A DNA stretch of 64,000 bases from Squalus acanthias (taxonomy: Eukaryota), in contig CM059427.1 of the NCBI GenBank assembly GCA_030390025.1, positions 186,806,001 to 186,870,000 of the forward strand. Reading direction: 5' to 3'. Below, piece by piece: positions 8,850 through 58,272 of the stretch; position 1 is the first letter of the stretch; each line of letters starts with the position of its first letter. The position numbers and the translations under genes are program-made. The notes beneath the pieces are model-generated. The model was not told where the DNA came from. It searched no databases and was given only the letters and a program-made list of their open reading frames with translations.

Positions 8850-8937
8850 ATGAGGCTACGATTTTTCTGCAACAAAATGCCAGCTGGTTTGATGTTCAGT
8901 TTCTTTGTGTTTCTACTTCCGTCTGTTTTCACACAAA
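8850..8937 (+). CDS. Signal peptide exon [29 protein letters not shown]
   Basis: Acceptor tttcttacag ends 8827; ATG at 8850; hydrophobic core; phase-1 donor gtaagt at 8938. Confidence 0.8.
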
Positions 8938-17900: not shown

Positions 17901-20900
17901 ATGAACACTGATCAGATCCGACTAAATAACACAGTCTTTCTGATAGTCAAACATGTTGCAGTAGAGGATAAGGAGTTGTACGCGTGTGAAGTGCAGGAAG
18001 ATGGATCCATTATTCTCACAGGAAAAGCAGATTTTTCTGTGGACCAGGGTAAGTGCAGTTACCTCACAGTAGATATTAAAGAGTTACTAATATAAAACTG
18101 TTACATATAAAGTGGAGTCATACATGTCAACCATCAGCACTTCATGCTTACAGTCAGCATGTGGGGGCCCGGTGCACATATCAGCATTGAACAAAAAACT
18201 GGCCTCTCGCCCCTCAATGCCACTTCTAACCGAGTTCTGCTGCTATTTGAAGTGATTCCAGCTGCTGCATACTCTAGGCTTCAAATAAGCATTCAGCTGG
18301 AGCAGGACTGAGGGAAGAGGGAAAGGCAGGGAATCAATGGCCATGAACGGAGAGGGAAGGATGGAAATGATGGCAATGTAGAGGAGAGATGGTGGGCAGA
18401 GGGAAATGACAGAGGCTGGGAGTGGGGCTTTGGGGGAGGAAGAGGGGAAAAGCTGAGAGTGGAACTTTGGAGTAGAAGATAAGAATTTGCATTTGTGTGA
18501 AGTGTAGGAAAAAGACTCTGTTATTAAAATAGCATCAAAACTATTGATGTGGATCAGGGTGAGGCCAGAACTACCTTACAGTAGATATTAAATAGTTACT
18601 GAAATAACACTGTTACACACAAAGTACAGGGAGCACAGAGACAGCATATGCTTTTACTACAGACTGGGACCTTATTTTCTCTTTGGAACATTGGTGTAAA
18701 TATAACATTGCAATACAGTGGGCAAATATCAGTAACAAGGTCTAGATGGATCTGACAATAAATAGCTAAAGAGTTGAAGGTGAACAGCAACATTCTCACA
18801 CAGCTCATCAGTTACCAAAACACAGAGACAATTCTTTTCTAAATATGGTTCACTTTACTCACTGCAAGGGCACAGCATTAAAGTCCATCCCTGAATATCT
18901 ATTCAGTGCTCTTCCAATACACACACATATGGCCGGAGTTTTCCAGAGTGGTAGCGGGGGCGATTGGTGGCGGGTCGAGTGGGAAAGTTATTCATAGAAT
19001 CATAGAATCATAGAAATTTACAGCACAGAATGAGGCCATTCAGCCCATCTTGTCCGTGCCGGCCGACAAAGAGCTATCTACCCTAATCCCACTTTCCAGC
19101 ACTTGGCTCCGTAGCCTTGGAGGTTCCGGCACTTCAAGCGCATATCCAAGTACATTTTAAATGTGGTGAGGGTCTCTACCTCTACCACCCTTTCAGGCAG
19201 TGAGTTCCAGACACCCACCGCCCTCTGGGTGAAAACAATTCTCCACAAATCACCTCCAAACTTCCGACCAATTACTTTAAATCTGTGCCCCCTGGTTATT
19301 GACCCTGCTGCTAAGGGGAATAGGTCCTTCCTATCTACTCTATCTAGGCCTCTCATAATTTTATACAACTCAATTAATTCCCTTCTCAGCCTCCTCTGTT
19401 CCATAGAAAATAACCCCAGCCTATCCAATCTTTCCTCAGAGCTAAAATTCCCGAGCCCAGGGAATATCCTTGAAAATCTCCTCTGCACCCTCTCTAGTGT
19501 AATCACATCCTTCCTGTAATGTGATGACCAGAACTGTACGAAGTATGCTAGCTGCGATTTAACTAGTGTTTTATACAGTTTAAGCATAACCTCCCTGCTC
19601 TTATATTCTATGCCTCAGCTAATAAAGGCAAGTATCCCGGAGGCCTTCTTAACACCTTATCTACCTGTCCTGCTACCTTCAGGGAGCTGTGGACATGCAC
19701 TCCAAGGTGCCTCTGATCTTCTGCACTTCTCAGTGTCCTACCATTTATAATGTATTCCCTTGCCTTGTTAACCCTCCCCAAATGCATTACCTCACACTTC
19801 TCCAGATTGCATTCCAATTGCCACTGTTCTGCCCACCTGAATAATCTTCCTGCAGTCTGCAGCTTTCTTCTTCATTATCAACCACACGGCCAATTGTTGT
19901 ATCATTTGCAAACTTCTTAATCATACTTCCTACATTCAAGTACAAATCATTGCTATTTACTACAAAAAACAAAGGACCCAGTACTGAGCGCTGCGGAACC
20001 CCACTGGAACCAGCCTTCCAGTCACAAAAACACACTTCAACCATTACCCTTTGTTTCCTGCCTCTGAGCCAATTTTGGATCCAACTTGCCACTTTGCCTT
20101 GGATCCCATGGGCTTTTACTTTCATGACCAGTCAGCCATGCGGGACCTTATCAAAAGCCTTGCTAAAATCTATATAGACTACAGCAAATGCAATACTGTC
20201 ATCGACCCTCTTTGTTACCTCCTCAAAAATTTCAATCAAGTTAGTCAGACACAACCTTCCCTTAACAAATCCATGCTGACTGTCCCTGATTAATCCGTGT
20301 CTTTCTAAATGAAGATTTATCCTGTCCCTCAGAATTGTTTCCAATAATTTTCCCACCACTGAGGTTAGGCTGATTGGTCTGCAATTACTTGGTCTATCCC
20401 TTTCTTCCTTTTTAAACAAGGGTACCACGTTAGCAGTCCTCCAGTCCTCCAGTACCACAGCTGTAGCCAGAGAGGATTGGAAAATGATGGTCAGAGCCTC
20501 TGCTATTTCCTCTCTTACTTCTCTTAACAGTCTGGGATACATTTCATCTAGGCCTGGGGATTTATCCACTTTCAAAGATGCTAAACCACTTAATACTTCC
20601 TCTTTCACAATGTTTATTTCATCTAATATTTCACACTCCTCCTCCCTGATTGCAATTTCTGCATCATCCCTCTCTTTTGTGAAAACAGACGCAAAGTATT
20701 CATTAAGAACCATACCCATGTCTTCCGCTTCCACACACAGGTTACCTTTATGGTCCTTAATAGGCACTACTCTTATTTTAGTTATCCTCTTGCTCTTAAT
20801 GGACCAGAAATTCGGCCCTCCACGGGTGAGTACACGCTATGTACTCACCCGTGGACCTAACGAAAGTGCCGGTTTCACGCATGCACTGCGCATGCGCTGG

Positions 20901-26900: not shown

Positions 26901-29900
26901 GCCCTGTGCAGCATCAGGTGGGTGAGGAGAAGGTTGGCGCTCCTGTTGTTGCTGCTGCTGTTTTGCCTGGTTCTGCTGCTGCCGCGGCTGCTCTTTCTCC
27001 TAATCTGAGGACCAGGATGACAGGGTATAAATGGTTCCCATGCTGCTGGTAGATATGTCAGTTGAGGAATAGAAGTTATAAGCGCTCAATCAATTTGGGG
27101 AGAGGGTTTTTCCAGGAGGTCACAGTGGAGATGGATCTCAGCTTCACCACTTACAAGATCAGTAGATCTGCAAAAAGTTTTCCAAGACCTGAAAAACAAA
27201 GTTGTGTCATCTGTAAGTGAGCCTTGTTGCGAGCTCTGTTTTGATGCTGGAGCTGCAGCTGTCAAGAAGTCAGCCACTTGGTGAACCCGGTACAATCAGC
27301 TGGAGTGGTTTGGGAACGGCGTGGAACACGCAGAAAATGCGGAAAAATCAAAAACTGCTGTTAAAATAGGCTTATCCAGGCAGTTAACAAACTTGGTGGT
27401 GGGACTGATCTGGACTCTGGGAGCCTGCATTTGGCAAAGTGGCGTGGAGGCGGGTTGACGGCGGGATCGGACCCTGCCATCAATCAAAGCGATTTTACCC
27501 CTGACTCACCTCCAAACCCGCCCTCTGAGCGCCGGCAAAATCGCGGCCTCTGGGCTAGTCTTGCTGAGAAAATGTGAAGGCTTTAGCAGAAAGAGAGAAA
27601 AATAAAGAATGAGTACAGGTATAAAATCTGTGAAAAATGTTAAATACAGAAGAGACAGATGTTCACTGTGAAAAAACTACAGGTTGCCACCAACTGAAAC
27701 AACAGCGACCTTGCTGTTAAAGTGGGCCAGGCCCACGGAGCAGACGCGTGTCGATTTTACATGGGGGAGGTGAGCACTGGAGGTAGAATTTTGCCAAAAC
27801 TCATGAAATTCAGCATGGGATTTTCTTTGAATAATTATTCCATGTAAATAAGGATGGCACTTGCCTGAAGGAACCATATTTAAAACATCGCAAAATTGTA
27901 CAACCTGCAGCCGCCACCAGCAGGACTCCATGTCGCTGGCCCAGCCTCCGAATATTGGGCCTGTGATGTCATGGCGTCATCCATGGGACAAAAAACACAA
28001 CTTGTTAAAAATCATAAAGTTTTAATTTTTTATAAATTTCTGTTTTATTTTGTGATTTGAACTCACCCAAGCTGTACAATTTTTAAACAGTTCATAGCTT
28101 TGACAAATGAAGTTGTGATGATCAAAATACAAAGTATTTTTATATAATTGTGCCTGGTAATTATTCTGGCTTTTCTCTGTTCCTCAGCAACCAGAAAATT
28201 CTAACACGTTGTTCTCTGTCTCTGTATTGCAGATTTATATGGGAAGCGTTACACACTTTATCGATCAGGCACAGATCACAGTGAACTCGACCTGATTTGC
28301 TATTATGCTTCTTCTTACAACACTGCTGCATGGACCTGGAGGTCACGTCATCTTCAAAATCAGGAGAAAGAAATAGCATCTGCTTCGATATCTCAGCTCA
28401 TCAATGTAGACAGGACCTACTTTGGGAGTCGACTGGTGCCCACAGAGACAAAGTTTAATGGCAAGAAGTTCAGTGTGAGGATTGTCCCTGTGCTGTTTGA
28501 AGATGCAGGAGTTTACACATGTTCTCTGGGACCACATAAAATGATGACCATTAAACTAATCACAGTTAAAGGTAGGAGACAGAATGCTGCCGTTGTTTTC
28601 AATGATCAAGTTATTGTTTAAAATCTAAATGATTTTCTTGTTTCCGCAGTCACAGCTGGACCATCTGATGCAATGACTGAGGGAGACACCGTTACCCTGA
28701 CCTGCTCTGTCTCTGATGTCACTGAATCAATGAGAGTTGTTTGGATCAGTCGTGATGGCAAAACTGTTGGAGAAAAAACATTGAATGGACAGAATGGGGA
28801 AGAGAAATCATTGAGACTGATTATTCCGAAAGCTGACAGAGGCAAAGGGAACTGGATATGCGCTTTGTTTCATCAAAACAGGCCGCGGGTTTTAGTCCCA
28901 TACTATCTGGAGCCCAGAGGTAAGTGACTCAGGGTTTGCTCTTTATATTTATAATCTCGATAGAAAATTCTTATCACTTATTGTTCTTGTTGCCAGAAGT
29001 AGCCCCTCCTTTATATCCTGTGTGTGAGGCTCCACAGTGGGGCAGAGCCTCAGAAAATCTACCCTGAGATAAATACTGTGGCTACAAGGGCAGGTCAGAT
29101 GCTGGGGATTCTGCGATGAGTGACTCACCTCCTGACTCCCCAAAGCCTTTCCACCAACTACAAAGCACAAGTCAAGAGTGTAATGGAATCCTCTCCACTT
29201 GCCTGGATGAGTGCAGCTCCAACAGCACTCAAGAAGCAAAGCTTCAAATTCAGAATTCCCATGTGGGCTCCCTGTACACCAACCCTGTCCTGCAACATCA
29301 CCTGCTCTCTACATCCTGTTAAATAAAGTGAATTCTCAACAACACTCAAGAAGCTCAACATCACCCGGGACAAAGCAATCCGCTTTATTGGCAGCCCCTC
29401 CACCAGCTCCACCACCGGCGCAACGTGACTGTAGTGGGGACCATTTACAAGATGCACTGCTGCAAATCACCAAGGCTTCTTCACCAGCACCTCCCAAACA
29501 CCCAAACTCTACCAACTAGAAGGACAAGGGCAGCAGGTGCTTGGGAACACCACCACCTCCAAGTTTCCCTTCAAGTCACACACAATCCTGACTTGGGAAT
29601 ATATCACCATTCCCTCATTGTCGCTGGGTCAAAATCCCGGAACTCCCTACCTAACAACACTGTGGGAATATCTTCACCACACGGACTGCACAGGTTCAAG
29701 AAGGCGGCTCAACACCACCTTCTCAAGGGCAATTAGGGATGGGCAATAAATGCTGGCCCTGCCAGCAACGTCCACATCCCGTGAATGAAAAAAAAAACTC
29801 AGCACAGCCTGGGATTGAGCTCGGAACGTACCTGGTCTGTGTCTCAACTACACTCTTGGTAAACAGTCTGAGACAGGGCATGTTTTTTTTGACAGCAGAG

Positions 29901-32900: not shown

Positions 32901-35900
32901 GGCTATCCACTGAAGACGTGGCTCATGACACCCTTGAGGAGGCCAAGTTCTGAGGCCCAGGAGAGATATAATGAAAGACACAGTTCCACCAGCTGTGTCA
33001 TAGAGCAGACAATGGGCATGCTGAAAATGCACTTCAGATGCCTTGACAGATCTGGAGGAGCCCTTCCGCATGCACCAGCCAGGGTCTCCCGAATCATCGT
33101 GATCTGCTGCGCCCCGCACAACATAGCGCAGCATGAGGATTAGCGCTGCATGAGGAGTAAGGCACTGAGCGCTCAGCCTCTTCAGAGGAGGAGGAGGAGG
33201 AGGACGTACTTGCAGTCCAGATCCCACCATCACCCGAGCACATTGCTGCTCGGGAGGCCAGGGATAGTCTCATCATTTCCAGATTTACTTAACTTTACAC
33301 AGTACACCCATATGGCTGCCATATGCTGCACCAGGTTCCCAACACCCAACACCAACACCATAAAGCATCCCTACAATGACCAAGCCATTCCTTTCACACT
33401 GACCCCCATTGCTGGAGGTAACGTTATGTCTCACCATTCACTCCAACTCACTAAGCCACTTCCAAAGTTACAGACAGGTTTCGTCATGACCGGAAAGTGG
33501 TGAAAATAATAATTTTTTTCTGTGACATCAGATTAGCGGAAACTTCACACAGTTATTAAAACACCCAAGTGCTTACCCTTGTGAATCTCCTTGTGTGTAA
33601 TCTTTCATTACGCGTGCTTCTATGAGGTGCTACCCCTAAAGCTTCAGCAGAGGTAGAGGCAGGCTGCTCACTTCTCTGCTGTGACTGCACAGACACTTTT
33701 GGCAGATGTCCTCTAGGTCGAGGAGCCTGCGATGGCCCCAGCGAAGTCTGCTCCTCCTGCGACTGTGCAGGGGCAGACTTGGCCATCGCGATCCCAGGAG
33801 GCATGTGGGGCTCTGACTGAGGGGGAGGCAACATGGGAGAAGTACGAGCGCTTTGAGTGGAGCCCCCACTTCCATGTCCCCTCTCACCATCATCCCTCTC
33901 ATGAGCCACCCACACATCCCTGCCAGCAAGGAGATGGACAGCAGGTTGATAAAAGCAGCTGGTTGTATCGAAATATATATTTCCTTCCTCTTCCTTATCT
34001 ATCTTGGTCACATCGTGCGCAGGCACTGGGTTCAACTTCCAGATGTTTGTTGAGGACCCCCAGCTCTCCCTCTCCACCATTTCCCATAACCCCCACGACT
34101 ACCTTTGGTCTTCAGCCTTCAGCCACAGTCTGAAATTACCACTAAATATCTCCACCTCTCCATTTCTCCGCGCCCCTTTAAAAACATTCTCCAAACCCTT
34201 TTTTTTCAATGTTTAGTCATATCTCCTAACTTTCACATCATTGCTTGTTGTCTTTTGATCCTTTTACCTCTTTCCCCCTCTGTGTAAACAGTCATGGAAC
34301 GTGTTCTTCATCAAAAGTGCTAGAAATATAAGCTTTTGTTAAACCTTTGAGGGCTAAGAAACTACCTGAGAAATAATGATCCATTATTGTAAGTGTATCT
34401 ATAGGAAAGTGATTTTTTTCTTTACAACTGGGTGTTTATGTGTTGTGTCACTTCTGAAATGAATTACAACTAACAACTTACTGAAAACAAATTGTCTGCA
34501 GTATTAATAATTACACAGATCGGATTGAGAAGTTGCTGTCTGATTTTAAAATGTTGGTTCTCCTTTCTTGCAGGAAGCCAGAATTGTATTGATTTTTTCC
34601 ATCAGGAAGGCAACTTTGCATTGAAAGGCCCGGACAATCCTGGAAATGGCTCCATTGTCTGGGAATGGAGACCACACTCAGGGCAACAAACTACAAAGCA
34701 ATTGGGAACTTTCCACCGAGAAGATCAGCAGTGGGCCGTACAATGGAGCGAGGAGTACAATAATATACCAGGAATTTCTCAGAGGATACATGAGGACTGG
34801 GGTACCCTTAATCTGAGAATCAGAAACCCCACCTTTGAACTTGCGGGATTGTTCACCTGGACTCAGACACAGCCCAGTAAGAAAATCCTGAAACAGTATG
34901 AAGTATTTGGGATCAAAGGTAAGTAGCACAACAAATGGAAAGGATTCAATCATATGATTTTTTTGTGAGTAAATCCACAAATATTCTGAACAGAATGTTG
35001 GGATGATGTCCTGATCCTCCAGTTCTATCACTCAGCCCAGAATGAATCTCTCATTAAAAGCAGCCAGGTGGGTAAAATTCCTCTGTTCATTAGAACTAGT
35101 GGATGCACTAAGGGCTAGTAATTTTGATAGTTAGCACTAGCATGTTGTTGTAATTTTTGTCCATCCTTCTAAAATTCCTGAGACAATGACCTTGGAGGAG
35201 GATGGAGCGGGTGGCGATGGTGTGGAATTCGTGGCGAGGGCCGAAGACGATGGCTTCAGTCTCCCAAATATTTAACTGGAGGAAATTGTGGCTCATTCTA
35301 GACTAGGTGTTAGACAAGTGATCTGACAGCACAGAGGCAGTGGAGGGATTCATAGAATCATAGGATCATAGAATTTTACAGCACAGAAGGCGGCCATTCA
35401 TCCCATCTTGTCCGTGCCGGACGACAAAGGCTATCCAGCCTAATCCCACTTTCCAGCACTTGGTCCATATCCTTGTAGTTTACAGCACTTCAACTGCACA
35501 TCCAAGTACTTTTTAAATGTGGTGAGGGTTTCTGCCTCTACCACCCTTTCAGGCAGTGAGTTCCGGATCCCACCACCCTCTGGGTGAAAAAATTTCTCCT
35601 CAAATCCCCTCTAAACCTTCCACCAATTACTTTAATTCTCTGGCCCCTGGTTATCGACCCCTCTGCTTAGGGAAATAGGTCCTTCCTATCCACTCTATCT
35701 AGGCCAGTCATAATTTTATACACCTCAATTAGGTCTCCCCTCAGCATCCTCTGTTCCAAAGAAAATAACCCTAGCCTATACAATCTTTCCTCATAGCTAA
35801 AATTCCTCAGCCCAGGCATCATCCTCGTAATTCTCCGCTGCACCCTCTCTACTGCAATCACATATTTTCTGTAATGTGGTGACCAGAACTGTACGCAGTA

Positions 35901-44900: not shown

Positions 44901-47900
44901 ATTACAGAACCGACATTCAGTTAACATTTATTTTGGCAATCGCAACTTTAATTGTTCAAAATACAAATAGCTTACATTATCTTATCAGAGATCCTTATTC
45001 TCAAATCTTAACTTCGTTACATTTCCACACTTCTACTTAATTCTTAATCCAGAATATCCATCAAAATCAAATAAGAGTACCTTGATCACCCGAGACCCAA
45101 AAGTTGTAAACTTACAGAGAATATCTGTAAAGTTGAGAAATGCTTGCCTTCTCAGCTACTTCTGACTTTTCTGTTTGAAAAGGTCTATTTTTATATCTTT
45201 TTTGGGTGGCTTATCCTTTGAAGTTTTCCTATTTATGTAAGCTGTAGGGGTGGTTGTTTGTGTCAGCTTCACCTCTGACTTCTGAGCAGTTCGAATCGCT
45301 CCCACTCCCTTGGTTCAAGACCTTGGACTTATTTGGGGGTTGTGACAAAAAGTGCAGCAGACAACTGGTTTTGATGCAAGAACTTTGAACTTTATTCAAG
45401 AAAATAAAAACACAACACAAACACTCTTAACACTCTTAACACTCTAAAGTGGAGAACACTTCGGTACAAGCGAGGGAAATAACATTAGAAGAATACTTCG
45501 CCCCTCCCAATCCCACTTCACTAGCTAGGTTGGACTCTGGAGAACCAGGGATAATGCTCACCAAATGAATCCTTGACAGTTGAGAGTTAGGGTTTAGAGT
45601 CTTTTGAGTAAAATGTTTCGTAAGGCCCTTGTTGCCGCGAGGTGTCTGATGGTCACTGAGGCGGTCGCTCTGGTTTCTTCTTACGTGTCGGCCTGCTTGT
45701 TCCTTGCTGCCTGCTTGTTTCGTTGTAACTGTGTACGGTTGTACTCGAGAACTCCTTTCTGTTGTAACTGTGTAACTGCTTGTCTCCTTGAACTGCCGTG
45801 TAACTCTACTGGAGAACTCGAACTCCTGAGAACTGCTGAACTCCTTAACTTGTTGAACTCCCTTCAACAGCTTCTTGCTGAACTCCCTGAACAGCTTCTT
45901 GTTTAACTGCTTGCTGAATTCCTTGCTGCTGTGTAACTCTACTGGAGAACTCGAACTTGAACTGTTGTAACTGCTGAACTGACTTCTTGCATTGTAAGAT
46001 TTTGGAGGGCTCGTCAACAGTAACTGGTTTGTAAATGTGTGAAGTGGTTTTCGGGACGGCGCCATCCTGTTGATCTGTTGCTTAATTGTAGCTGATTATC
46101 CTTATGTTTTGGGTTTCTTGGTTGGGCCTGTAATTTCTATCGGGTAAGCCGAAGTAATTTGAAATATGCATGTTTTGATGGGGCCTGTGTTTTGGGTGGG
46201 ACTGCCTTCTCCCAGGGTCTATTGTCAAAATGTTAATATCTGCTGGGGTTTTGAGTGAGGTCATCCTGGTTCCCCAGACAGTGTAATTAACTGCAATAGC
46301 CAAACTGCTTTTACAGAGGTCGAACCCACCTCCTTGTCCCTTTACAGGCCCAGACATAGTTTTAAAATGCCAAAACTTGGTTTTTGGTCTTAAATTCCTT
46401 ATGTTAGGCCCAAATGCATTTTTATCACTCTGAGGTAGTTCCAAAGTCCTTTTTCCTTAGGTTTTGGGGATCTGTAAATTTTGGAAACCTTACAAAGCCA
46501 ATTGTATCAAGTCATTCTTTGCTGACTTTGTTCTATTCTTTATTGATATCTCTGTTGAATGCTTTTAGACTTGTGTCCTGTTTAGGTGTTTCCAAAACCA
46601 TCATAAACACAATGACAGCAATGGTTTCTGTTTGATGCAATTCTTATCGAAGTCTTTCTATTGAATTTCTAATATTACTTTAACTGGTTATTTTCAGACA
46701 TTGTGACTCCGTGGTATTCCAAGTTCAATACAAGAACAATGTAATTGCTTGGTACATCTATTGAAGTAATATTTTCAAAGTCGTCTTGTTTGTGTACCTT
46801 TTACAATTTGTAAATTAAAAACACTTCTCTGGTATCTTCATGCATTTCTAATTTACTTCAATTGGTTTTTATCAGACCTTAGGACTCCATATTTCAAGCT
46901 TAACATTAAAACTATTTGTTCAGCAGGCATTTCTTTCACTTGATGTCATTTCTTCAATGCTTTCTGTAGGTATCATATTTACAATATGTAAATTGAAAAC
47001 ACTTTAACTCAAGTGTTTACTTGTTTTCTAGCTATCTCTATTGGTTGCATATTTAATCATGTTTCCTTTCTTTAAGTTTAACATAAAACTATTTTACGAT
47101 AGGTATTTCTTACTTGATGTCATTCTTTCAAAGGCACTTGTTTTTTTTAATGTTCTGTGTACCTGTTCGACGTGTTAGATTATAACACTTTACTTGGGTC
47201 ATTCCATTGTTTTGATTCCAATGTCCAGACGCTCTGGAAGCAAACCTTTGCTTTATCAATAGGGCTTGTTTCTTGGTCAATAAACCATTCCCATTTCAAA
47301 GCCTGTGGTGTTTTACAACTTGTTAATAACTGATCTTTATCTCAGAAGCCTGTATTGTGCCTACAGCCTATGTCGCCGAGGCTTTCAGACTTTTAAACCC
47401 AGTATGTCTTTTATTAATAATTTCAGAAATCTGTTCGTAGTATCGTGTATTTTTCTGAATCCTGGCTACTCCTTCACACATAGTCAGCACTAAGCATGGC
47501 TGGTCAGCATTTGCCTGACTGTGTCTGTTTGTAGAAAAATAAAATTCTGAATGCAATAGTTGAGAAAGTTTATGGAAAGCTATACTACATGTCATTGATC
47601 TGTTTTTACAGTTGAGACAGATTCACAGAGGCCTGTAAGGGGCAGTGACATCACCCTCAGTTGTACCATCTCCAGACTCTCAGATACAGTCAGTCTTCAC
47701 TGGAAACCAAGAGACTCATCTCAGCAGAACAGGAGGAACAACACTGATGGGATCCATCTGAATAACACGGTCTATCTGATAGTCAGACACGTTGGAGCAG
47801 AAAATCAGAATTTGTACACATGGGAAGTGCAGGAAAATGACTCCATTGTTCTCACTGGAAACACAAATGTTGATGTGGATCAGAGTAAGTCCAGAGCTAG

Positions 47901-50900
47901 CTTGCAGTAGGTGTTAAATAGTTACTGATATAAAACTGTTACACACAAAGTACAGCGAGCACAGGCACCACTGTGGGCTTTTACTGCAGAATGTGGTCCT
48001 TGTTTTTGCCCTGGAACATGGGTGTAAATATAAAATGGTGACATTAAGAGCTGATGTGAACAACCAGGTGAACTCACTGGATTCATTTCGATTCACATGT
48101 ATGAATCAAAAAGAATAAAATCCATCAATCTATAAAAGCAACTGCCATTCCAGTCTATATTGGAATAGAGAAATACAAACAAATTAAATGAACACAACAC
48201 AGGTGTTACAAGATTCGGGTCTTTCCTGAGACATTCTCTTGGGTACAGTGTGCTGCTCACTCACAAAACTGGTCTGAGTGTCTTACATTTAGGGATGTTC
48301 TCATACTGCCCAATATCTGACTATATGACAGCATAAGCTAAGGGTGTAAGAATAAGCCCCCCTTGTGACCTGAACTGGATATTTGTGTCTATCGCACGTC
48401 TACATCATTAGTCATTTTGAAAGTTTCCAAAAAAACCCTTGGTGAGACAAGGCCAGTAATGAATTGTTAAACTGCTTTATTTCACAGCAAGTGAACATAC
48501 AGAATAACAGTTATGATCAGATTCACTTAGTTCAATCAGTCTCACCTGTCTTTGTGTAGCAGTTCTAAATAATGAACATGCTACACTGCTCCAAACCAAT
48601 GGGTTAAATTCTTGACTTAACCAACTTAACTCCTCACGATGTGGTCTCCTCTTCATTTGGGAGACCAAACGCAGATTGGGTGACCGCTTTGTGGAACACT
48701 TCCGTTCAGTCCGTAAGCGTGACCCTGAGCTTCCGGTCGCCTGTCACTTTAATTCTCCGCTCCACTCCCACTCTGATCTCTCTGTCCTCGGCCTCTTACA
48801 CTGTTCCAACGAAGCTCAACGTAAGCTCGAGGAACAGCACCTCATCTTTCGATTAGGCACTTTACAGCCTTCTGGACTTAACATTGAGTTCAACAATTTC
48901 AGACTATAACCTCGGCCACTATTTTTTTTCCTTTGTTTTCTCACATGGCAGCTGTTGATGATTCTTCCATCGCCATTTACACCTCATCGAGAGTCATCCT
49001 TTGTTTCTTAACTTGTCCCATTACCTCTCCTTTTGCCTTGCACCATCATCCCTTTTGTCTTTTAATCTCTTCCGCCCTCCAGCCTATCACAGACATTCCC
49101 TTTTGTTCTTTCCTCCCTGTCCCTGTCCCTGCTCCACACTTGCTTAAAAATCTGTTACTTCTCTCACATTTTCCAGTTCTAACGAAGGGTCCTCGATGGG
49201 AAACGTTAGTTCTGTTTCTCTCTGTCGATGCTGTCTGAGCTGCTGAGTGTTTCCAGCATTTTCTGTTGTTATTTCAGATTTCCAGCATCCACAGTATTTT
49301 GCTATTAACTCCTAACTACCCCCCTACATGTTAAACCTCTGAGCCTGTCCCAAGCTTGCCCTTGCAACTTTCTGTTTCCAGCCAGACTGACATTGCACCA
49401 TTTGATTGAGCTCCCTGCCTGCCCATGTCTCTCTCTCTATATTACCGTCTTCTGTTAACAACCCGAGGGAACCAAAGATGCCGATCACAATGGGTATGAG
49501 GCATTTATTGATAATCGATTGCTGAGGCAGTTTAACAAATTGATTATCTACAGTCCACGGGGAAACAACATCACTTTGACGGGGGCCATGTTTGGGGCAG
49601 ATGGACTTTGTAGCCCAACCCGGCGTTTAAACAATAGGCAGCCTGGGCCGGCAGCCAGTGTATCCGGGTCCCAGCCGATTTCCCTGTCCCAATGCTGCAC
49701 TCCCAGCTGGCTTATGCCAGGAGGGCGCTGAATGGCCCTGTGGGAATTCAGAACATCTGTATCTCAGCAGCTATATAAATCTAACACCTTGTTTCCTGTC
49801 TCTCTATTTCAGATTTACACAACAAGAGTTACACACTTTATCGGTCAGACACAGATCACAGTGAACTCTCCCTGATTTGTGAAGCTGAATCTGAGATCAT
49901 TAAAACTAAATGGACTTGGAGGTCACGTCATTTTCAGAATCAAGAGAAAGAAATAGCTTCTACTTTCAGATCTAAGCCTATCGATGTAAACAGGACCTAC
50001 TTTGGGAGTCGACTGGTGCCCACAGTGGGAAATCTTAATGGCAAGAACTTCAGTGTGAGGATTGTCCCCGTACTGTTTGAAGATGCCGGAGTTTACACAT
50101 GTTCTCTGGGGTTATTGAATTATGTGACCATTAAACTAATCACAGTTAAAGGTAGGAGACAGAATGCTGCCATTGTTTTCAATGATAAAGTTATTGTTTA
50201 AAATCTAAATGATTTTCTTGTTTCCACAGTCACAGCTGAACCATCTGATGCAGTGACTGAGGGAGACACCGTTACCCTGACCTGCTCTGTCTCTGATGTC
50301 ACTGAATCAATGAGACTTGTTTGGATCAGTAGTGATGGCAAAACTGTTGAAGAGAAAACTTTTAAGGACCAGAAGCAGGAAGAGGATTTGTTACGACTAA
50401 TTATTCAGAAAGCCAATAGAGACAGAAGGAACTGGACATGTGTTTTGTTTCATCAAAACACGCCCAGCGTTTTAATTCCATATTATCTGAAGGTTAACAG
50501 TAAGTGTCTCAGGTTTTTCTCTTTGTAACCTCCATAGAAAGTTCATCATCATAGAATCACAGAAATTTACAGCACAGAAGGAGGCCATACGGCCCATCTT
50601 GTCCGTGCCGACCGACAAAGAGCTATCTACCCTAATACCACTTTCCAGCACTTGGTCCGTAGCCTTGTAGGTTATGGCATTCCAAGTAATTTTTAAACGT
50701 GATGAGGGTCTCTACCTCTACCGCTCTGTCAGGCAGTGAGTTCCAGACCCTCACCACCCTCTGGGTGAAAAGATTTCTCCTCAAATCCCCTCTAAACCTC
50801 TGACCAATTACTTTAAATCTATGCCCCCTGGTTATTGACCCCTCTGCTAAGGGAAATAGGTCCTTCCTATCCACTCTATCTAGGCCCCTCATAATTTTAT

Positions 50901-53900
50901 ACACCTCAATTAGGTCTCCCCTCAGCCTCCTCTGTTCCAAAGAAAACAACCTCAGCCTATCCAATCTTTCCTCATAGCTAAAATTCTCCAGCCAAGCAAC
51001 ATCCTCGTAAATCTCCTCTGCACCCCTTCTCGTGCAATCACATTCTTTCTGTAATGTGGTGACCAGAACTATACACAGTATTCTAGCTGCGGTCTATCTA
51101 GTGTTTTTTTCAGTTCAAGCATAACCTCCCTGCTCTTAATATCTATGCCTTGGCTAATAAAGCAATTATCTCAAATGCCTTCTTAACCACCTTATCTATC
51201 TGTCCTGCTACCTTCAAGGATCTGTGGACATGCACTCCAAGGTCCGACTGACCTTCTGCACTTCTCAGTGTCCTACAATTTAATGTGTATTCCTTTGCCT
51301 TGTTAGCTCTCCCCAAATGCATTACCTCACACTTCTCCAGATTGAATTCGATTTGCCACTGTTCTGCCCACCTAACCAGTCCATTGATATCTTCCTGCAG
51401 TCTGCAGCTTTCTTCTTCATTATCAACCACACGGCTAATTTTTGTATCATCTGCAAACTTCTTCATCATACTTCCTACATTCAAGTCCAAATAGGTGATA
51501 TATACCACAAAAGGCAAATGGCCCAGTACTGAGCCCTGCGGAACCCCACTGGAAACAGCCTGCCAGTCACAAAAACACCCTTCAACCATTACCCTTTGTT
51601 TCCTGCCTCTGAGACAATTTTGGATCCAACTTGCCACTTTGCCTTGGACCCCATGGGCTTTTACTTTCGTGACCAGTCTGCCATGTGGGACCTTATCAAA
51701 AGCCTTGCTAAAATCCATATAGACTACATCAAACACACTACCCTCAAGTTCTTGCTGCTCTTTTGTTATGATAACCTTTTACTTTTCATATTCTATTGCA
51801 CTCCACATTACTCAGAGTTTAATCATAGGTGTTCACATATAAACAGTTTAACATCAAAAGTCAAACTATACAGCTCAAAGCAATGGAAGAAGAAATACAG
51901 TTCAGTGTTCGGTCAGACGCATTGTCAGGCAGATATAGAGGGAATACATCATTCGAGGTACAATTGTGGGGAAGGAGAGAGATGCCCTGACCTGCTCTGT
52001 CTCTGATGTCACTGAATCAATGAGATTTTTTTTGTATCAGAAATTAAAGCAACATTGTTGAATAGAAATCGTTCAATGGATGGAATTGGGAAGGGAAATC
52101 ATTGAGACTGATTATTCAGAAAGCTGACAGAGACAGAGGGAACTGGATATGTGTTTTGTTTTATCAAAACAGCCCCAGGTTTTACCCCTGTACTATCTGG
52201 AGCCCAGTGCTAAATTACTCCGCGTTTGCGCTCAATAGAAAATTATTGTCACTGATTGTTCTTTTTGCCAGAGATGATCACTCATCCTTTGTGTCCTATT
52301 TCTCTCCACTATTGCTAACAGCCTCCACATTCATAATTATTCACACCACAGTTTGAAACCACAAGAAAAGCCACACAGTGAAATTTGCCCCCTTGTCTCA
52401 GACACATTGGGGGTAATTTTGACTTCAGGCGACAGAGTCAAACGAGCGATATCGGATCAGCCGCCCGTTATACATCGCTTCTGATTTTCAGTTCCATTGA
52501 TTTCAAAGTCAAAATTGTATGGGAAGGTTGGAAGGAGCATGCAGTTTGAGATATGGAGGCTGAAGGCATGTGGCCTGGTCAGAGAGTGAGGAGAGGGAAG
52601 AGTATGTTTCCTGTCTCGCCGCCCATGATTTTCTGATCAGCACGGGCTGTGTGTGAGGCTCTGTCACTGGGGAGAGCCTCAGAAAATCTCCCCTCAGATA
52701 ACTCAGCACAGCCTGGGATCGAGTTTGGAACCTTCCCGGTCCGGATGTCTCAGATACGCATTGAGACAAGGCAAGCATTTATTTTTCAGAGCAAAAGGGT
52801 ACAGAAGCCGTTTCCATTGGTTTTCAGACCCCAAATCAATCCGAATCTTTAGGCAGATTGTTAAAAAAGAAATCACAGCAAAAAACAATTCCCAGCTGCA
52901 AAAATTGCAATTGCAAGTCTCCACTCTTCAGGCTCAGAGAAACTCTTCTTCTCTGCCTGTCTCAGCTGATCCTGGAAACATCGGAGCCTCATCACTCTCA
53001 TTCTAACTGAGGGCTCGTGCATTGTGAGCACAAGAGCAGGAAACTCGAGGCTCTGGGTGGCCTCCTGAAACAGGCTTTAGGCGTCTTCCACATGCAATTC
53101 TGGGTCCTAACGCCAACTGGAGGACCCCGATTGAAATTGGTGTACAGATGGGCGGAGCTTATGCCGGGCCAGCTCCAGCTCACTGTACCAGGTTTTGAGT
53201 GGATGAACCACTGGTGTTTAACAGGACCGTTGGAGGCCGCTCAAGAAATGGCCGTAAAACCTTTTAACAGTTACATTTCTGTGGAGCCAGGGGGAGATGG
53301 AGTGCTTCTCCTGGCTCCACAATAATACTGCGGCCTGGGTTCGACCTCCACACAATCCCACGGGTTTGGCTCCCCAAAGGACCTACCTGTGGGCTGGTTC
53401 AGCATCGAAGCTGGCTGGAATTCATCAGGCCCCCACTGGGACACAACGATTGGCGTCTGCGGATCGTCTGTTTCATTCTAATGAGGGCTGATGGTGAATT
53501 TCATCTGGCCCCAGGCCGGCAGGGACCGGCGCTCAAAGCAATCACTTCGCCAACTTGATGCCCATTTTGGGCCCAAGTTCAATTTCTCAGACTTGGAACC
53601 TGCAGATTTAAAAGCAGAGGAATGAAAGGGGACCTTAAAGAGCTTTATAAGATAATGAATGGAACAGAAAATATTGGTCTGGAGGAAAATCTCTGGACTG
53701 GTATAAGAGGCAGTTGGAGACTGTGATGATGAGACTGTAAGATTACATCGAAGGATTAGCTGGAGGAACCGACTATCTTCCCTCATCCCTTGTCTTTATT
53801 TATCCTCATAATAATAAGGTTGAGTCCATGAGGGTGCTGCAGAAAATGAAAACAAAGGTGTAGTGTTAGGAGATTTAAATCAGTCAGGAAATATTAAAAG

Positions 53901-56900
53901 GAGGAAAAAGCATCAATGGTACATGGCTGAAATAAAGAACAGAGGGAAAAGAAACAAAAAGAAGCATCAGCTATACTTGGTTAAAAAACCTCACAGGATT
54001 GAAGGAAAGCAAAAGCCAGTTAGACCGTTAAACTTACTGTGAATGCAGCTCTATCACCAACGTTGTTTGTGCCGGATTCTCACACAGGTCTTGTGATTCA
54101 CTGAGCAGTGGGAATTCCTACAGAGTATCCGTGATAGGCACCAGACAGCAATTCACCACCTCAACAGCACCTGTCCACGCACTGAGTGTTAATAATAGGC
54201 TCAGCAATATTACAAGGCAAGGTTTCACACCGAGCAGCACAGTGCGTGGATCCTGCGTTCGCTCCCACACTAGAAACCCCGCCAGAGGAACTTGGGGTCG
54301 ATGTGAACTATCGGGTGTCTGACCGGCGGAGCGGGAGGGCGATGGACGGCCGCCCGATGGTGCTGACGCAGGCCCGGTCCATGTTGACGGACGGGCCTCA
54401 TTAGCATCACACCGGCAGGCCTTGGGCAGAAATCGATGGGCCAACCGCCTGACTCCACCCGCCCAGCGCTAGGCCCGGGAGAAGATCGCCGCGGCCACAG
54501 TGACTGCAGGAATGGGGGGAAGGGGGGCTGAGCCATTCCCGGCCATTTTCCGGGACATTATCATCCTGATTCCACCAGCCGGGAGGCCTCAAAATTCAAC
54601 CACTCACTCCCTGAACAGTGGGATTATAGGTCATTGAATACAATAGTACATTGAGGCTTGCAAACCAGATATTAGAGAAGACAATGACATTGATATGGAG
54701 AGTAAACTAAAGACAAATGATTGAGGATAACATGGAAGATCACATTCAATGTTCTGTTTAATAGTTTAAAATTAGGTTTGATAATCTTGACCATGATCAA
54801 TGCCATGGGAGATGACCCAGTCGATCATAATTATAACGGAAGTCTGTCTACTGATGAAATTGTCCATTTATATCAAGTACTTACCTCATCTAGTGTTACA
54901 ATATTATATTAATTAAGATTTTGAAATAAATATTAAATTAAATGTACCATAGATAAACATTACAACAACACACAAAACTTTCAAAAACATGCATGGTAGC
55001 ACTGTTAAACATTAATAGTTTCAACAAAATTGCACTTTGTCAAAATAGGTGTTTTTTAAGTGAGTGCCAGTTACAGATCTGAGGCTGTCTCACGCCGAGA
55101 TTGGGAACTCACCACCTGGGGAATCTCAGGAGTGAATCTGTATTCTGCCCCTCTGGTCAGGACAACACTTTCACATCCAGTTTGTCAGTTTAGACAATGA
55201 ATGACCCAATTTTGAGTTTATTCACTCACTTTTCATTCACTCAGAGCTGCTCACTTTAATTCTAAACCATTGCACCCACAAGAATCTGATGAAAATAGTC
55301 AAATCCAGACACATAAAATGTGACAAAAAGAACACAACGTGGACTTGGTCTTGATGGAAATATTTGGTTCTCTGGTTCCCAGTGTTTAAAGCAGAATGTT
55401 TTCACTTTCCACATCTTTTATAGAATGACTGGCAGGAGTATTTAAATATTAAACGAGATGGAGAGTGAAACTAAAATATCAACTTTGTCCTTCACAGTGA
55501 GAGCGAGACCACTTCCGGAGATTTGGATCATCACAGTTTCGGGCTACTTGTTGGTTAAACTGGGCGTTGCTGTTGGACTAATTTGCTGCTTGAAGAGGAT
55601 GACCAGAGTAAGAATTTCTTTAAGCTTTCCAGTAAATCAGGAATTAGTTCCGAGCTGTCACTTGACACTGAGAAAACTGATGTTCGTTGAACTGATATTA
55701 TGTGGTCACAAACTGTATTTTAAAGTTTCATTTAAATATTGTACATTGTATTGAATTTAAAGGAATCATCAGTTAAAGAAAGTAATTGTTCCAAATTTGG
55801 TGAAATCTTAGAGCTTTGAATATTTTTCCTGATTCAAACGGCAATAACTGCCCTGCTCCCACTTTCCATCAGGCTCTGAGAAAGGAATCAGGGCGATCTC
55901 GGAGGGCCATACCTGATTATCAATGAATGGACAATGCTCAAACTAGGAGCCCAATCTTTTAATATTTTTTATTGATTATCACAAATATTCCTCTTTGAAA
56001 TTTGTAACTTGAAAGTTGTCAGAAACCAATATTTGAACAGTTAAAGCACAACCAGTAAAAATTACTGTAAATGGAAGTTACTAATGTATTCTGTGACAAT
56101 TAATGAGTTTGATCATTTTAATGTGTGCTGTTATTCTTGTTGCTGTGGCCTGGTGGCGCAAGAGAGCTGCAGTAGTGTTGGGCCAAAAATGAATTTGTCG
56201 CTCTGTAAACCACTTCCTCTGTGGCAGGTTTGGTTTACCTGATTTACTCATCGTCAAATCTCAGTCGATTCAAAAGCAAAGTTTCTGTTTCGGAGAGCCC
56301 TGTCGGGTTTGTGTTAGAGGAAGAAGTGTTTCAAGGCTGTGTGCTTCTGGGTGAAGCGAGGCGTTGTAGAATGGGAACTATTGGGGTGAGAGGCACAGAA
56401 ATGTGGTAACAAGTGGAAAGTTTGAACTGACATGAAGGATGTGAGGTAATCTGTATTGTTCAGGATGTTTACATAGAATTACATAGAATTTACAGCACAG
56501 AAACAGAACATTCGGCCCAGCAGGTCTGTGTCGGTGTTTATGCTCCACACGAGCCTCCTCCCACCCTACTTCATCTCACCCTATCGACATATCCTTCTAT
56601 TCCTTTCTCCCTCATGTACTTATCCAGCTTCCCCTTAAATCAATCTGTACTATTCGCCTAAAACACTGCATATGGTTGCGAGTTCCAGCGAGGAAGGAAT
56701 AGGGAAATCTCTGAGGGCCAAACCTGATTATCAATGAATGAAATAAAAACAGAAAATGAATGAACTTTGCTCACACTAGGAGCCCAATATTCTAGTTTTA
56801 AAATTTTTCATTGAATTTACTGTCACAAATATTCCTCTTGGAAATTGAAAATTGGTAACTTGCATGTCGTCAGAAACCAATTTTATTTGAACAGTTGTTT

Positions 56901-57579
56901 GAAAAAGCACAACCAGTAAAAATTACAATAAACTGAACAGTACGATTGTATTTAGTGAAAATTAATGATTATTTATTATTTAAAAATTAAAATTAACTTT
57001 ACTTAAGATCACAGCTCAGGGAGGTAACAAGAGAGACAGAATCAGTAGCTTTAGTAGGAGAGCATTGTTCTGTCAGAAGTAGAGTTGTAAGTTCAAGGAG
57101 GTAACTTTACTGGTGAGGTCAGTCAACCACAGGGAGAACCTCTTCGAAATGTGGTCACACTATGGCCATGAACTTCGAGCTCAATGGTGTGACCTTATTT
57201 TACATTCATACATTCATAGTAGGAAAAATCTTCCACAGTATCTTCTATCAGTAACTGGAGTTAGTTTATCATTTTAATCAGGTCTGTTCCTTCCAATTAC
57301 TGAGCCTTTAATTGTTGAAATTATCTCATTAACACTGAGCCAGTGATGTGTGGGTCATGGTCTGTTCTGTTGCCCATTCTGTAAAATTACTCCTCTATTC
57401 GACTTCCTCTTTATCCATCACTTCCAGTCCAGTGTTTATTATTGAAGGATAAGCTCTTTATTTAAAGCACATTTCTTGCCTCTTGTCAGATATCGAACAG
57501 CGGGAATCCACACGAGGCGACAGGAAATGAAACAGATGATTCACAAGGAGCCAGCGCATTTCAGACCCTTGAACTCTGA
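8850..57579 (+). CDS. Spliced gene for a type I membrane IgSF receptor with 8 Ig domains (V*-C2-V-C2)x2, CD4/LAG-3-related, Lys in TM. Exons 8850-8937, 13758-14099, 17779-18048, 28233-28571, 28650-28919, 34574-34918, 47612-47884, 49813-50151, 50230-50499, 55498-55607, then 55873-55926 or 57490-57579
   Basis: All exons have AG/GT boundaries. The eight Ig exons are phase 1-1 with lengths divisible by 3 (342, 270, 339, 270, 345, 273, 339, 270) and no internal stops. The joined frame is open for 882 codons to the end of the TM exon. Hydrophobic leader and TM are present. Confidence 0.85.
9067..9718. mobile_element. MITE-like element (related to 2549-3155)
   Basis: Termini ggggtagagtttctgct / agcggaaacaccaggcc; shared internal ctcaaactcatttgcatatcg. 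Confidence 0.55.
10433..12123 (-). mobile_element. Solo LTR (family of 45243-46494)
   Basis: TGTAGG...CCTTACA ends; both terminal segments are homologous to 45243-46494; no clean TSD. Confidence 0.7.
13758..14099 (+). CDS. Ig domain 1 exon (V-like, no cysteines)
   Basis: ctaacag acceptor, gtgagt donor; VVWEWKP (C strand), [18 protein letters not shown] (E/F strands); paralog of 34574-34918. Confidence 0.85.
14616..15967. mobile_element. Harbinger-like non-autonomous element with internal minisatellite and nested LINE
   Basis: TIR ggggggaattttaa / ttaaaattccggcc (12/14 match); TSD ATT; ccttccgacctcc-type repeats at ~14990-15240. Confidence 0.65.
15397..15952 (+). mobile_element. Non-LTR retrotransposon 3' fragment (CR1/L2 group)
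   Basis: [32 protein letters not shown]; ends aataaatgctggccttgccagc...A-tail. Confidence 0.8.
16348..17109. mobile_element. PIF/Harbinger-type MITE
   Basis: Degenerate TIRs, 3-bp TSD ATT; collinear with 20801-21563. Confidence 0.75.
17779..18048 (+). CDS. Ig domain 2 exon (C2-like)
   Basis: tttcacag acceptor, gtaagt donor; VTLSC...LQWK...DKELYAC. Confidence 0.9.
18467..18710 (+). pseudogene. Partial pseudo-exon copy of the D2/D6 exon 3' end plus adjacent intron
   Basis: ttggagtagaagataagaatttgcatttgtgtgaagtgTAGgaa...gatgtggatcagg|gtgagg aligns to the D2/D6 ends; downstream sequence matches 47885-48040. Confidence 0.7.
18993..22520 (-). mobile_element. CR1 LINE (degenerate ORF2) interrupted by a MITE
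   Basis: Reverse-strand endonuclease and RT fragments ([17 protein letters not shown]..); (atcataga)n tail at the left end. Confidence 0.9.
20801..21563. mobile_element. PIF/Harbinger-type MITE inserted in CR1
   Basis: TIR ggaccagaaattcggc / gccgaatttctggccc (15/16); TSD AAT; the empty site cttaatgtatttataaaac is seen in the related CR1 at ~42847. Confidence 0.85.
22530..24318. mobile_element. Harbinger deletion derivative with Myb/SANT-like gene remnant on the - strand
   Basis: [25 protein letters not shown] at 23790-23882; segments homologous to 31600-33600. Confidence 0.7.
25297..27548. mobile_element. Harbinger transposon, internally deleted: Myb/SANT gene (+, exon from 25568 to 25807 and exon from 26150) and DDE transposase remnant (-)
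   Basis: Perfect 12-bp TIR ggccgcgatttt / aaaatcgcggcc; TSD TCT; [18 protein letters not shown]; [24 protein letters not shown]. Confidence 0.88.
28233..28571 (+). CDS. Ig domain 3 exon (V-set)
   Basis: attgcag acceptor, gtagga donor; LDLIC...WTW...FSVRI...EDAGVYTC. Confidence 0.9.
28650..28919 (+). CDS. Ig domain 4 exon (C2, WxC motif)
   Basis: 78-bp intron upstream; EGDTVTLTC...VVW...GNWIC; gtaagt donor. Confidence 0.9.
29072..29796 (+). mobile_element. Non-LTR retrotransposon 3' fragment
   Basis: Same family as 15397-15952; A-tail; empty site visible at ~52700. Confidence 0.8.
30234..30995. mobile_element. Harbinger-type non-autonomous element
   Basis: Perfect 13-bp TIR gggctcgattttg / caaaatcgagccc; TSD AAA; (GTA)/(GTG) microsatellite at 30663-30695. 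Confidence 0.8.
31546..33945 (+). mobile_element. Harbinger transposon with frameshifted DDE transposase (32096-33143)
   Basis: [51 protein letters not shown]; frameshift near 32480; outer boundaries approximate. Confidence 0.85.
34574..34918 (+). CDS. Ig domain 5 exon (V-like, D1 paralog)
   Basis: cttgcag acceptor, gtaagt donor; [41 protein letters not shown]. Confidence 0.88.
37111..42826 (+). mobile_element. CR1 LINE, middle layer (near-complete ORF2, frameshift near 38640)
   Basis: 510-aa and 207-aa ORFs; ...CNISK at 39280 resumes as FADDTKL at 41899; (ttctatgt)n tail. Confidence 0.9.
39281..41898 (+). mobile_element. CR1 LINE, inner layer, 5'-truncated, uninterrupted 831-aa ORF2
   Basis: ORF 39304-41799 with partial endonuclease and full RT; (tatctatg)n tail. 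Confidence 0.93.
44559..47478. mobile_element. Probable solo LTR-like element hosting a nested solo LTR
   Basis: TGAAGG...CCTTCACA ends flanked by CATA/CATA; degenerate ~180-bp internal repeats at 46660-47200. Confidence 0.5.
45243..46494 (-). mobile_element. Solo LTR
   Basis: TGTAGG...CCTTACA ends; 4-bp TSD AAGC; reverse-strand AATAAA near 45391. Confidence 0.82.
47612..47884 (+). CDS. Ig domain 6 exon (C2-like, D2 paralog, F-strand Cys replaced by Trp)
   Basis: tttttacag acceptor, gtaagt donor; [19 protein letters not shown]...NLYTWEVQE. Not in the ORF track because it has no start codon. Confidence 0.85.
48634..49300 (+). mobile_element. Penelope-like element 3' fragment (GIY-YIG endonuclease)
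   Basis: [45 protein letters not shown]. Confidence 0.85.
49813..50151 (+). CDS. Ig domain 7 exon (V-set, D3 paralog)
   Basis: atttcag acceptor, gtagga donor; LSLIC...WTW...EDAGVYTC. Confidence 0.9.
50230..50499 (+). CDS. Ig domain 8 exon (C2, WxC motif, D4 paralog)
   Basis: 78-bp intron upstream; EGDTVTLTC...LVW...RNWTC; gtaagt donor. Confidence 0.9.
50546..51735 (-). mobile_element. CR1 LINE 3' fragment
   Basis: [30 protein letters not shown] on the reverse strand. Confidence 0.9.
51985..52209 (+). pseudogene. 5'-truncated pseudo-exon copy of D4/D8
   Basis: ccctgacctgctctgtctctgatgtcactgaatcaatgaga is identical to D4/D8; retains [20 protein letters not shown]; has indels, no acceptor, and the donor is changed to ctaaat. 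Confidence 0.8.
55498..55607 (+). CDS. Transmembrane exon [37 protein letters not shown]
   Basis: ccttcacag acceptor in phase 1; ~24-aa hydrophobic stretch with central Lys, juxtamembrane CC and basic stop-transfer KR; phase-0 donor gtaaga. Confidence 0.82.
55873..55926 (+). CDS. Candidate terminal exon A, short tail [17 protein letters not shown]
   Basis: Pyrimidine-rich acceptor ctcccactttccatcag; open in phase 0; a degenerate copy lies at ~56688-56960. Confidence 0.5.
   Translation, partial: ALRKESGRSRRAIPDYQ
56470..56688 (-). mobile_element. Short CR1 3' end
   Basis: acatagaattacatagaatttacagcacag tail in reverse orientation. Confidence 0.65.
57490..57579 (+). CDS. Candidate terminal exon B, tail [29 protein letters not shown]
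   Basis: Strong acceptor atttcttgcctcttgtcag; 29 open codons in phase 0; AATAAA downstream at 58273-58278. Confidence 0.6.
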   Translation: MSNSGNPHEATGNETDDSQGASAFQTLEL

Positions 57580-58272
57580 TACTGATCTGAGATCATAGAG
57601 TGACTGACACAGCACAGAAGGAGGCCATTCAGCCCATCGTGCCTGTGCTCATCGAGATCTGCAGTCTCTGGAAACTAGATCGACCCAACTTGGGAAACTT
57701 TAGAAATAGATTTGTAGTTTTATTCTGGAGTTATTTTGTGGTAATTTTTTTATGTATCTAGTTTAGTTTATATCCCGAAGTGTCCATTTCAATAGTTCCC
57801 AGTCTCAGTATCTGTTATTTTACTTTACAAGTCCTAACTTGCCAGGTCGCTATAAGAAATTCTAATGGGTGGAAAATCGTGCGAACGTTGGGCTGAATTC
57901 CTGATCTCCACTCGTGGCCGGTGAGGCTCCAGGCTGGGGACACAGTTTTATAACTGTAGGGACTGACGGTGACCCAGTGGTACAGCCGTGTGTGGAGCTT
58001 GAAGTGTTGGGACGTGGATTTGTGACTGTGGGTCCCCAGTGAGTGATCTCAGCTGGACTCTCTCTGCAGAGGAGCTGAATGGAGCTGAGCTGCTACAAAT
58101 GAGAAGGAATGAAACTCGGCTCAGTAAATATGGGCGTCTCCCCTGCACCTCCCAGCACCTGTTCACACAACGAGATCGCGGAATCTCCGGAGAAGGTTGT
58201 CTCCATGCTCCCACCCAGGGAATTGTTTGCAGCAGAGCGCGACTAAAAGATTAACAGAAAAGAAACAGCATG

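Follow-up and report, generated by a model that had tools for sequence, protein, structure and literature searches.

We describe here a shark gene that is probably the on-switch in a family of paired on/off receptors, which is apparently unnamed and extends from sharks to frogs. The gene lies within a stretch of 64,000 nucleotides of Squalus acanthias DNA (the window). Judged from its sequence and from those of its relatives, its product is most likely the activating member within a paired immunoglobulin (Ig) superfamily family of jawed vertebrates, built of CD4/LAG-3-like modules and coupled to ITAM adaptors.

Paired activating and inhibitory receptors are central to the control of NK and myeloid cells, and to our knowledge few of them are known in cartilaginous fish. 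The paired wiring is already known from skate MDIRs and ray-finned fish DICPs, and the wiring principle is textbook. Activating receptors that couple to adaptors are recognised by a charged transmembrane (TM) residue together with a short tail (PMC3031540, PMC4701786). Our searches of the open literature yielded neither an account of the family nor a mention of shark DAP12, and term searches in two supplements (PMC3964593, PMC10768021) were likewise without a match. The family gives multi-copy candidates with opposing wiring in sharks, rays, chimaera, bony fishes, coelacanth and frogs. Its kinship with CD4 and LAG-3 opens two testable questions, that of the ITAM adaptors of sharks and that of CD4-type ectodomains as innate sensors of self or MHC.

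Gene model and Ig domain architecture

The gene comprises eleven exons on the + strand, which join into one open frame of 911 codons (911 amino acids in the gene model). All internal splice sites are canonical (GT-AG), and every Ig exon is in phase 1 and has a length that is a multiple of three. The leader exon encoding the signal peptide (8850..8937) has a phase 1 donor and matches ortholog N-termini. The ectodomain consists of eight Ig domains, arranged as two V-C2-V-C2 modules (a and b). Module a is composed of D1a (13758..14099), a cysteine-less V-like domain which is a hallmark of the family, the C2-type D2a with YxC in strand F (17779..18048), the V-type D3a (28233..28571) and the C2-type D4a with WxC (28650..28919). 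Module b is composed of the likewise cysteine-less, V-like D1b (34574..34918), the C2-type D2b (47612..47884), the V-type D3b (49813..50151) and the C2-type D4b with WxC (50230..50499). A stalk and transmembrane exon with a central Lys (55498..55607) and a cytoplasmic tail exon of 29 codons to the stop (57490..57579) complete the gene. D1a and D1b contain no cysteine at all and D2b contains a single one; since Trp replaces the strand-F Cys, D2b is predicted to lack the canonical disulphide. The same Cys to Trp change recurs in the b-type modules of further shark and ray species.

A division into two separate four-domain genes was rejected, as no TM exon follows D4a, no convincing leader precedes D1b, and the protein aligns end to end with 8-domain orthologs. 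Given the missing TM exon after D4a, the D4a exon is taken to splice on to D1b. The closest proteins, from sawshark and sevengill shark, match at 77-80% over the whole length. The number of modules is variable within the family: shark relatives of 1300-1700 amino acids and a protein of 2139 amino acids in American eel (P0001-P0004, P0127) imply, by their length, three or more tandem four-domain modules.

D1a and D1b gave zero Pfam matches. In the AlphaFold model of an ortholog, D1 is an Ig-like beta-sandwich (pLDDT about 80-90), and we call it V-like from this model and a weak profile match only. D1 is recognisable in bony-fish relatives and absent from several cyprinid, characin and frog members.

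The introns are rich in LINE-type reverse transcriptase/endonuclease copies (e.g. 18990-20800, 35348-43932, 50548-51746, 61266-64000). Transposase-like reading frames near 32316-33140 are, like these copies, ordinary repeats. Just downstream of D2a, a broken partial duplicate of the end of the D2 exon and its intron is located at 18464-18708. No flanking gene was found in the 64-kb window.

Transmembrane exon and cytoplasmic tail

The TM exon is flanked by a pyrimidine-rich canonical AG and by GT. Its phase is 1 on entry, which continues the frame of the D4 exon before it, and 0 on exit. Its codons specify a stalk and a hydrophobic segment of 24 residues, then Cys-Cys and a basic stop-transfer. 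The initial annotation had seen here a mid-membrane Lys followed by juxtamembrane cysteines, and the gene model bears this out with an in-frame exon at exactly 55498-55607, the Lys codon at 55557..55559 (TM position 13 of 24) and the Cys-Cys at 55584..55589. For the analysis of its conservation, Lys was masked in the TM query to avoid selecting on this residue. A search of 293 collected proteins gave 31 matches at E<1e-4; every one of them carries Lys in this column, and the next matches are neutral TMs at E>0.02. The residue from which coupling to an activating adaptor had been proposed is thus no chance occurrence and is conserved in homologous TM segments. The Lys is invariant across homologous TMs although neighbouring residues differ. 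The juxtamembrane cysteines are unconserved across the Lys-type group, with CC in 8/26, one Cys in 5/26 and none in 13/26 Lys-type relatives. A conserved palmitoylation site was ruled out on these counts, and the earlier suggestion that the receptor is possibly palmitoylated is weakly supported.

The tail is encoded by a single exon that matches the tails of Lys-type orthologs (tblastn E about 1e-10 to 1e-13). It contains no Tyr, no ITIM or ITAM and no CxC/CxH, and this confirms for the favoured exon the absence of CxC/CxH that the initial annotation had reported for its candidate tails. A tail starting at the candidate acceptor 55873 and one arising by read-through were rejected, and the exon at 57490 was favoured. 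Acceptor 55873 is located in a locally duplicated element with no protein match: the TM-tail intron contains a duplicated non-coding element (55878-56121 and 56690-56984, 72% identical), which holds this tempting, unsupported acceptor.

Near the tail end (57560-57598), a one-base shift relative to the orthologs leads to the loss of the last few ortholog residues; the ortholog-type stop would fall at 57596-57598. The shift is either a real allele or an assembly error. The shifted tail end reads F-x-x-L-E and thereby resembles the LAG-3 motif (F/Y)xxL(D/E). As the orthologs have no such motif, we regard it as a by-product of the frameshift and not as a feature of the family.

The frameshift, together with pseudo-exon fragments and the many intronic LINE insertions, might indicate that the locus is a decaying or mis-assembled copy which makes no functional receptor, a reading that would leave the interpretation of the family intact. 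We consider this improbable, since each of the 11 exons has canonical splice sites and keeps the frame open through 911 codons, the sawfish protein P0021 is an 8-domain, Lys-type counterpart with 70% identity, and the shift alters only the last few, motif-free residues.

Lys-type and ITIM-type relatives

A first homolog search with D3b as query retrieved 73 proteins, all from elasmobranchs. A profile search retrieved 104 proteins, i.e. 102 chondrichthyan family members and two weak, unrelated loach matches. For classification, 123 chondrichthyan proteins from 23 species were used, the rows of which include isoforms and are thus non-independent. A Lys-type TM is present in 26/123 proteins, none of which has an ITIM (0/26). 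Neutral TMs are present in 61/123, and 56 of these 61 proteins carry ITIMs. An Arg-type TM was scored in 7/123; five of the seven share one ITIM-free ray TM, one has ITIMs and one is an edge artefact. The other 29/123 proteins, many of them partial models, are without detectable TM.

All 14 species having the Lys type have the ITIM type as well, the ITIM row of S. torazame being probably a fused model. ITIM sisters carry two or three ITIMs on a neutral TM. For 9/25 Lys types, a same-species ITIM partner exists with 88-99% ectodomain identity, and some of the near-identical Lys/ITIM pairs may come from gene models spliced across a single locus. For 12/25 Lys types, the same-species ITIM partner is nearer than any Lys type of another genus, and for the other 13/25 a Lys type of another genus is nearer than the same-species ITIM type. 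As the Lys types are ITIM-free, the ITIM types occur in the same species and the ectodomains of some pairs are near-identical, we conclude that the proteins form a paired-receptor family. The paired family foreseen in the initial annotation was thus found, with ITIM-bearing, neutral-TM paralogs of similar or near-identical ectodomain in the same species; within the 64-kb window, tblastn with two ITIM tails detected no ITIM sister. The adaptor-dependent activating receptor proposed there likewise gains good comparative support from the invariant Lys, the ITIM-free tails and the ITIM paralogs.

The occurrence of five neutral-TM forms without ITIM and of the 29 forms without detected TM, many partial, suggests that non-signalling members exist. 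It would also fit a Lys without adaptor role, serving instead in ER retention, in homo- or heterodimerisation with ITIM sisters or in snorkelling, in a protein acting as decoy or adhesion form. We give this little credence: at 13/24 the Lys is central and too deep for snorkelling, it is invariant beside varying neighbours and always paired with an ITIM-free tail, and no acidic TM residue was seen in the TM segments of the ITIM sisters.

A second TM is found in rays (Mobula, Hemitrygon; P0005, P0034-P0036, P0109), which bears Arg and is followed by an ITIM-free tail. By its sequence, this form is possibly an independent activating form that uses another adaptor.

Proposed mechanism of signalling

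A central Lys as against an outer Arg separates DAP12 partners from those of FcR-gamma and zeta, the latter usually carrying Arg near the outer leaflet. Following this positional rule, a DAP12-type adaptor would be the most likely partner, the Lys being central and the protein of type I. From established immunoreceptor biology, we infer that the TM Lys would form an Asp-Asp-Lys triad with a dimeric ITAM adaptor, the arrangement through which such receptors are described to assemble (bioRxiv 10.1101/2020.12.22.424036). Adaptor pairing would be needed for surface delivery, and ligand binding would lead to Syk/ZAP-70 signalling in leukocytes; ITIM sisters, binding the same ligand or one like it, would bring in SHP phosphatases. 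As ligand we would guess at a cell-surface protein of the host itself, or at a pathogen decoy of such a protein, with MHC as a candidate on account of the kinship with CD4 and LAG-3. It counts against the scheme that, according to PMC4016189, the FcR-gamma chain was not found in the shark genomes of 2014, and that the literature searches yielded no record of DAP12 or DAP10 in sharks.

A related, rather unlikely alternative is that the Lys couples to a TCR-type module (CD3-zeta or CD3 dimers) and not to DAP12, in which case the protein would be a lymphocyte co-receptor or NCR-like, still activating. The expression of CD3Z in sharks (PMC10768021, Table 1) and the kinship with the T-cell co-receptor CD4 speak for such a module, and so does the outcome of the literature searches on DAP12 and DAP10. 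It is opposed by the family's separate Arg-type TM (rays, five proteins), the ITIM-paired multigene layout, which resembles that of innate receptors, and the usual preference of zeta and FcR-gamma partners for an outer-leaflet Arg.

Taxonomic reach and relation to CD4 and LAG-3

In a full HMM scan, 376 matches were obtained at E<=0.001, the best 150 of the 376 being listed and 30 looked up by name. Members are present in chimaera, bichir, sturgeons, bowfin, eels, tarpon, elephantfish, pike, cyprinids, characins, coelacanth and frogs; no amniote member is among the 30 matches named, which is no evidence of absence. The members looked up by name are annotated as uncharacterized, hypothetical or generic look-alike proteins, and many non-chondrichthyan members have ITIMs. 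Named CD4 and LAG-3 proteins are found in the scan with E 1e-19 to 1e-10 among the matches listed.

A tree built from 55 V-C2 units has a 99/99 branch which splits 33 family units, which span sharks, bony fish, coelacanth and frogs, from 14 CD4/LAG-3 and 8 DICP-like units; the rows were picked by the family's own profile, leave out shark CD4, shark LAG-3 and G6F-like proteins, and include two LAG-3 labels assigned in this analysis. A grouping of the window units with LAG-3 D3-D4 is rejected by the AU test (p 2.6e-5). WxC is present in D4 only; D2 has YxC or YxW in 13/13 aligned rows. With the AlphaFold model of an ortholog, LAG-3 and CD4 occupy the top six ranks in Foldseek (TM about 0.25-0.3). 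This model is mediocre (mean pLDDT 59.8, D3 poorly modelled), and the ranking is accordingly taken as a lead only. In ESM feature space, clusters of CD4 and of g6f-like proteins lie nearby. A sequence search of the PDB gave 26 weak generic Ig matches, with PD-L1 as best and LAG-3 at E 2e-5.

Takizawa et al. (PMC10768021) take Cx(C/H) as the defining motif of CD4 and (F/Y)xxL(D/E) as that of LAG-3, with WxC in D2 and D4 as a further definition of either. The protein described here shares with them the type I topology, the V-C2-V-C2 module (present twice), WxC in D4 and the top structural matches, and they are the nearest named proteins among the matches listed. It differs in having eight domains, a Cys-less D1, YxC/YxW in D2 and the TM Lys, and in belonging to a multigene paired family, whereas CD4 and LAG-3 are single-copy. 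CD4 has a multi-exon tail with the LCK-binding motif Cx(C/H), in contrast to the single tail exon without Cx(C/H) found here. LAG-3 shares the single-exon tail, but carries in it the (F/Y)xxL(D/E) motif that the tails of the orthologs do not have.

The modules with their WxC in D4, the Foldseek top six and the nearness of CD4 and g6f-like clusters in ESM features would also suit a divergent CD4 or LAG-3 duplicate within the CD4/LAG-3 family proper, the tail of which had been swapped. Such an origin is very improbable in view of the 99/99 branch and the AU result, of D2 without WxC and D1 without Cys, and of the fact that sharks are reported to possess their own CD4 and LAG-3 with visibly different sequences and tails (PMC10768021). 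The CD4/LAG-3-like ectodomain of the initial annotation hence holds as an architecture and as distant kinship and not as membership, as the protein belongs to a separate clade, has WxC in D4 only and a Cys-less D1, and carries no Cx(C/H) in its tail, while the tails of its orthologs are without (F/Y)xxL(D/E). By sequence, the family is a separate lineage related to CD4 and LAG-3, membership in which is unsupported.

Comparison with other receptor families

The DICPs of ray-finned fish resemble the family in being multigene, with ITIM, charged-TM, secreted and ambiguous forms, and in V-C2 units which can be tandemly doubled with one exon per domain; they differ in that their domains keep C23/C104 and usually have extra cysteines, where D1 here has none, and in that bowfin activating DICPs use Arg instead of Lys (bioRxiv 10.1101/2021.06.11.448072). 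The skate MDIRs provide a cartilaginous-fish precedent for a charged TM with short tail versus an ITIM tail (PMC3031540). Teleost G6F-like proteins have four Ig domains, are near in ESM feature space and share YxN motifs with some family members; they signal via a cytoplasmic ITAM of their own, unlike the tyrosine-free tail here (PMC3528668). No G6F-like name was found among the 30 profile matches looked up.

Percomorph proteins, which we take to be DICP-like and which are annotated as uncharacterized in their sources, gave blastp E values of 0.02 and 3.5 and form a separate clade in the tree (8 units, with named DICPs not among the rows). The mammalian DAP12-paired families (KIR2DS/2DL, SIRP-beta/alpha, CD300, TREM) follow equal wiring logic with similar paired ectodomains. 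The MDIRs differ from the family in resembling CD300/TREM/pIgR V domains. Since no such names occur among the close relatives, the likeness to MDIR, CD300 and TREM is regarded as functional and not orthologous.

Origin and age of the Lys-TM/tail cassette

Just upstream of the TM exon, a broken D4a-type pseudo-exon (51985..52272, +) and intron stretches at 52647-53052 match D4a and its downstream intron. Because this D4a-type relic precedes the TM exon, we infer a rearrangement between ectodomain and Lys-TM; the relic suggests that an 8-domain ectodomain may have been recombined onto a former 4-domain Lys-type gene. From the genomes compared, the Lys-TM/tail exon pair would be an old cassette that was repeatedly recombined with, or homogenised against, the ectodomains of inhibitory paralogs. 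Homogenisation would be patchy, as 13/25 Lys types are nearer to another genus's Lys type.

A GYLxVK register is common to the shark TM and those of bowfin, three sturgeon species and paddlefish, with a gapless TM alignment and ITIM-free tails. The bowfin TM match is by itself non-significant (E 2.0), and the bowfin, sturgeon and paddlefish ectodomains form a long separate branch at a node that the tree does not resolve. A word-index search with the bowfin/sturgeon alignment gave five proteins, all from bowfin, sturgeon or paddlefish, and tells little about absence elsewhere. The Lys motif of these fish and that of sharks likely represent one ancient cassette, as far as sequences tell; alternatively, the shared motif may reflect convergence.

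On a more speculative reading, which we consider doubtful, the family is a third branch of the CD4/LAG-3 superfamily and an ancestral gnathostome paired system, the Lys cassette of which predates the split between sharks and bony fish and which reads MHC or MHC-like ligands. If this were true, the family would contain candidate KIR-equivalent NK/myeloid receptors of cartilaginous fish, and it would give a view of the ancestral stock behind CD4 and LAG-3.

Basic TM residues are also present in members from eel, pike, sturgeon and coelacanth. The sturgeon and bichir proteins P0141 and P0147 have a neutral TM and carry YxN motifs where others have ITIMs, which recalls the Grb2 site in G6F-like proteins.
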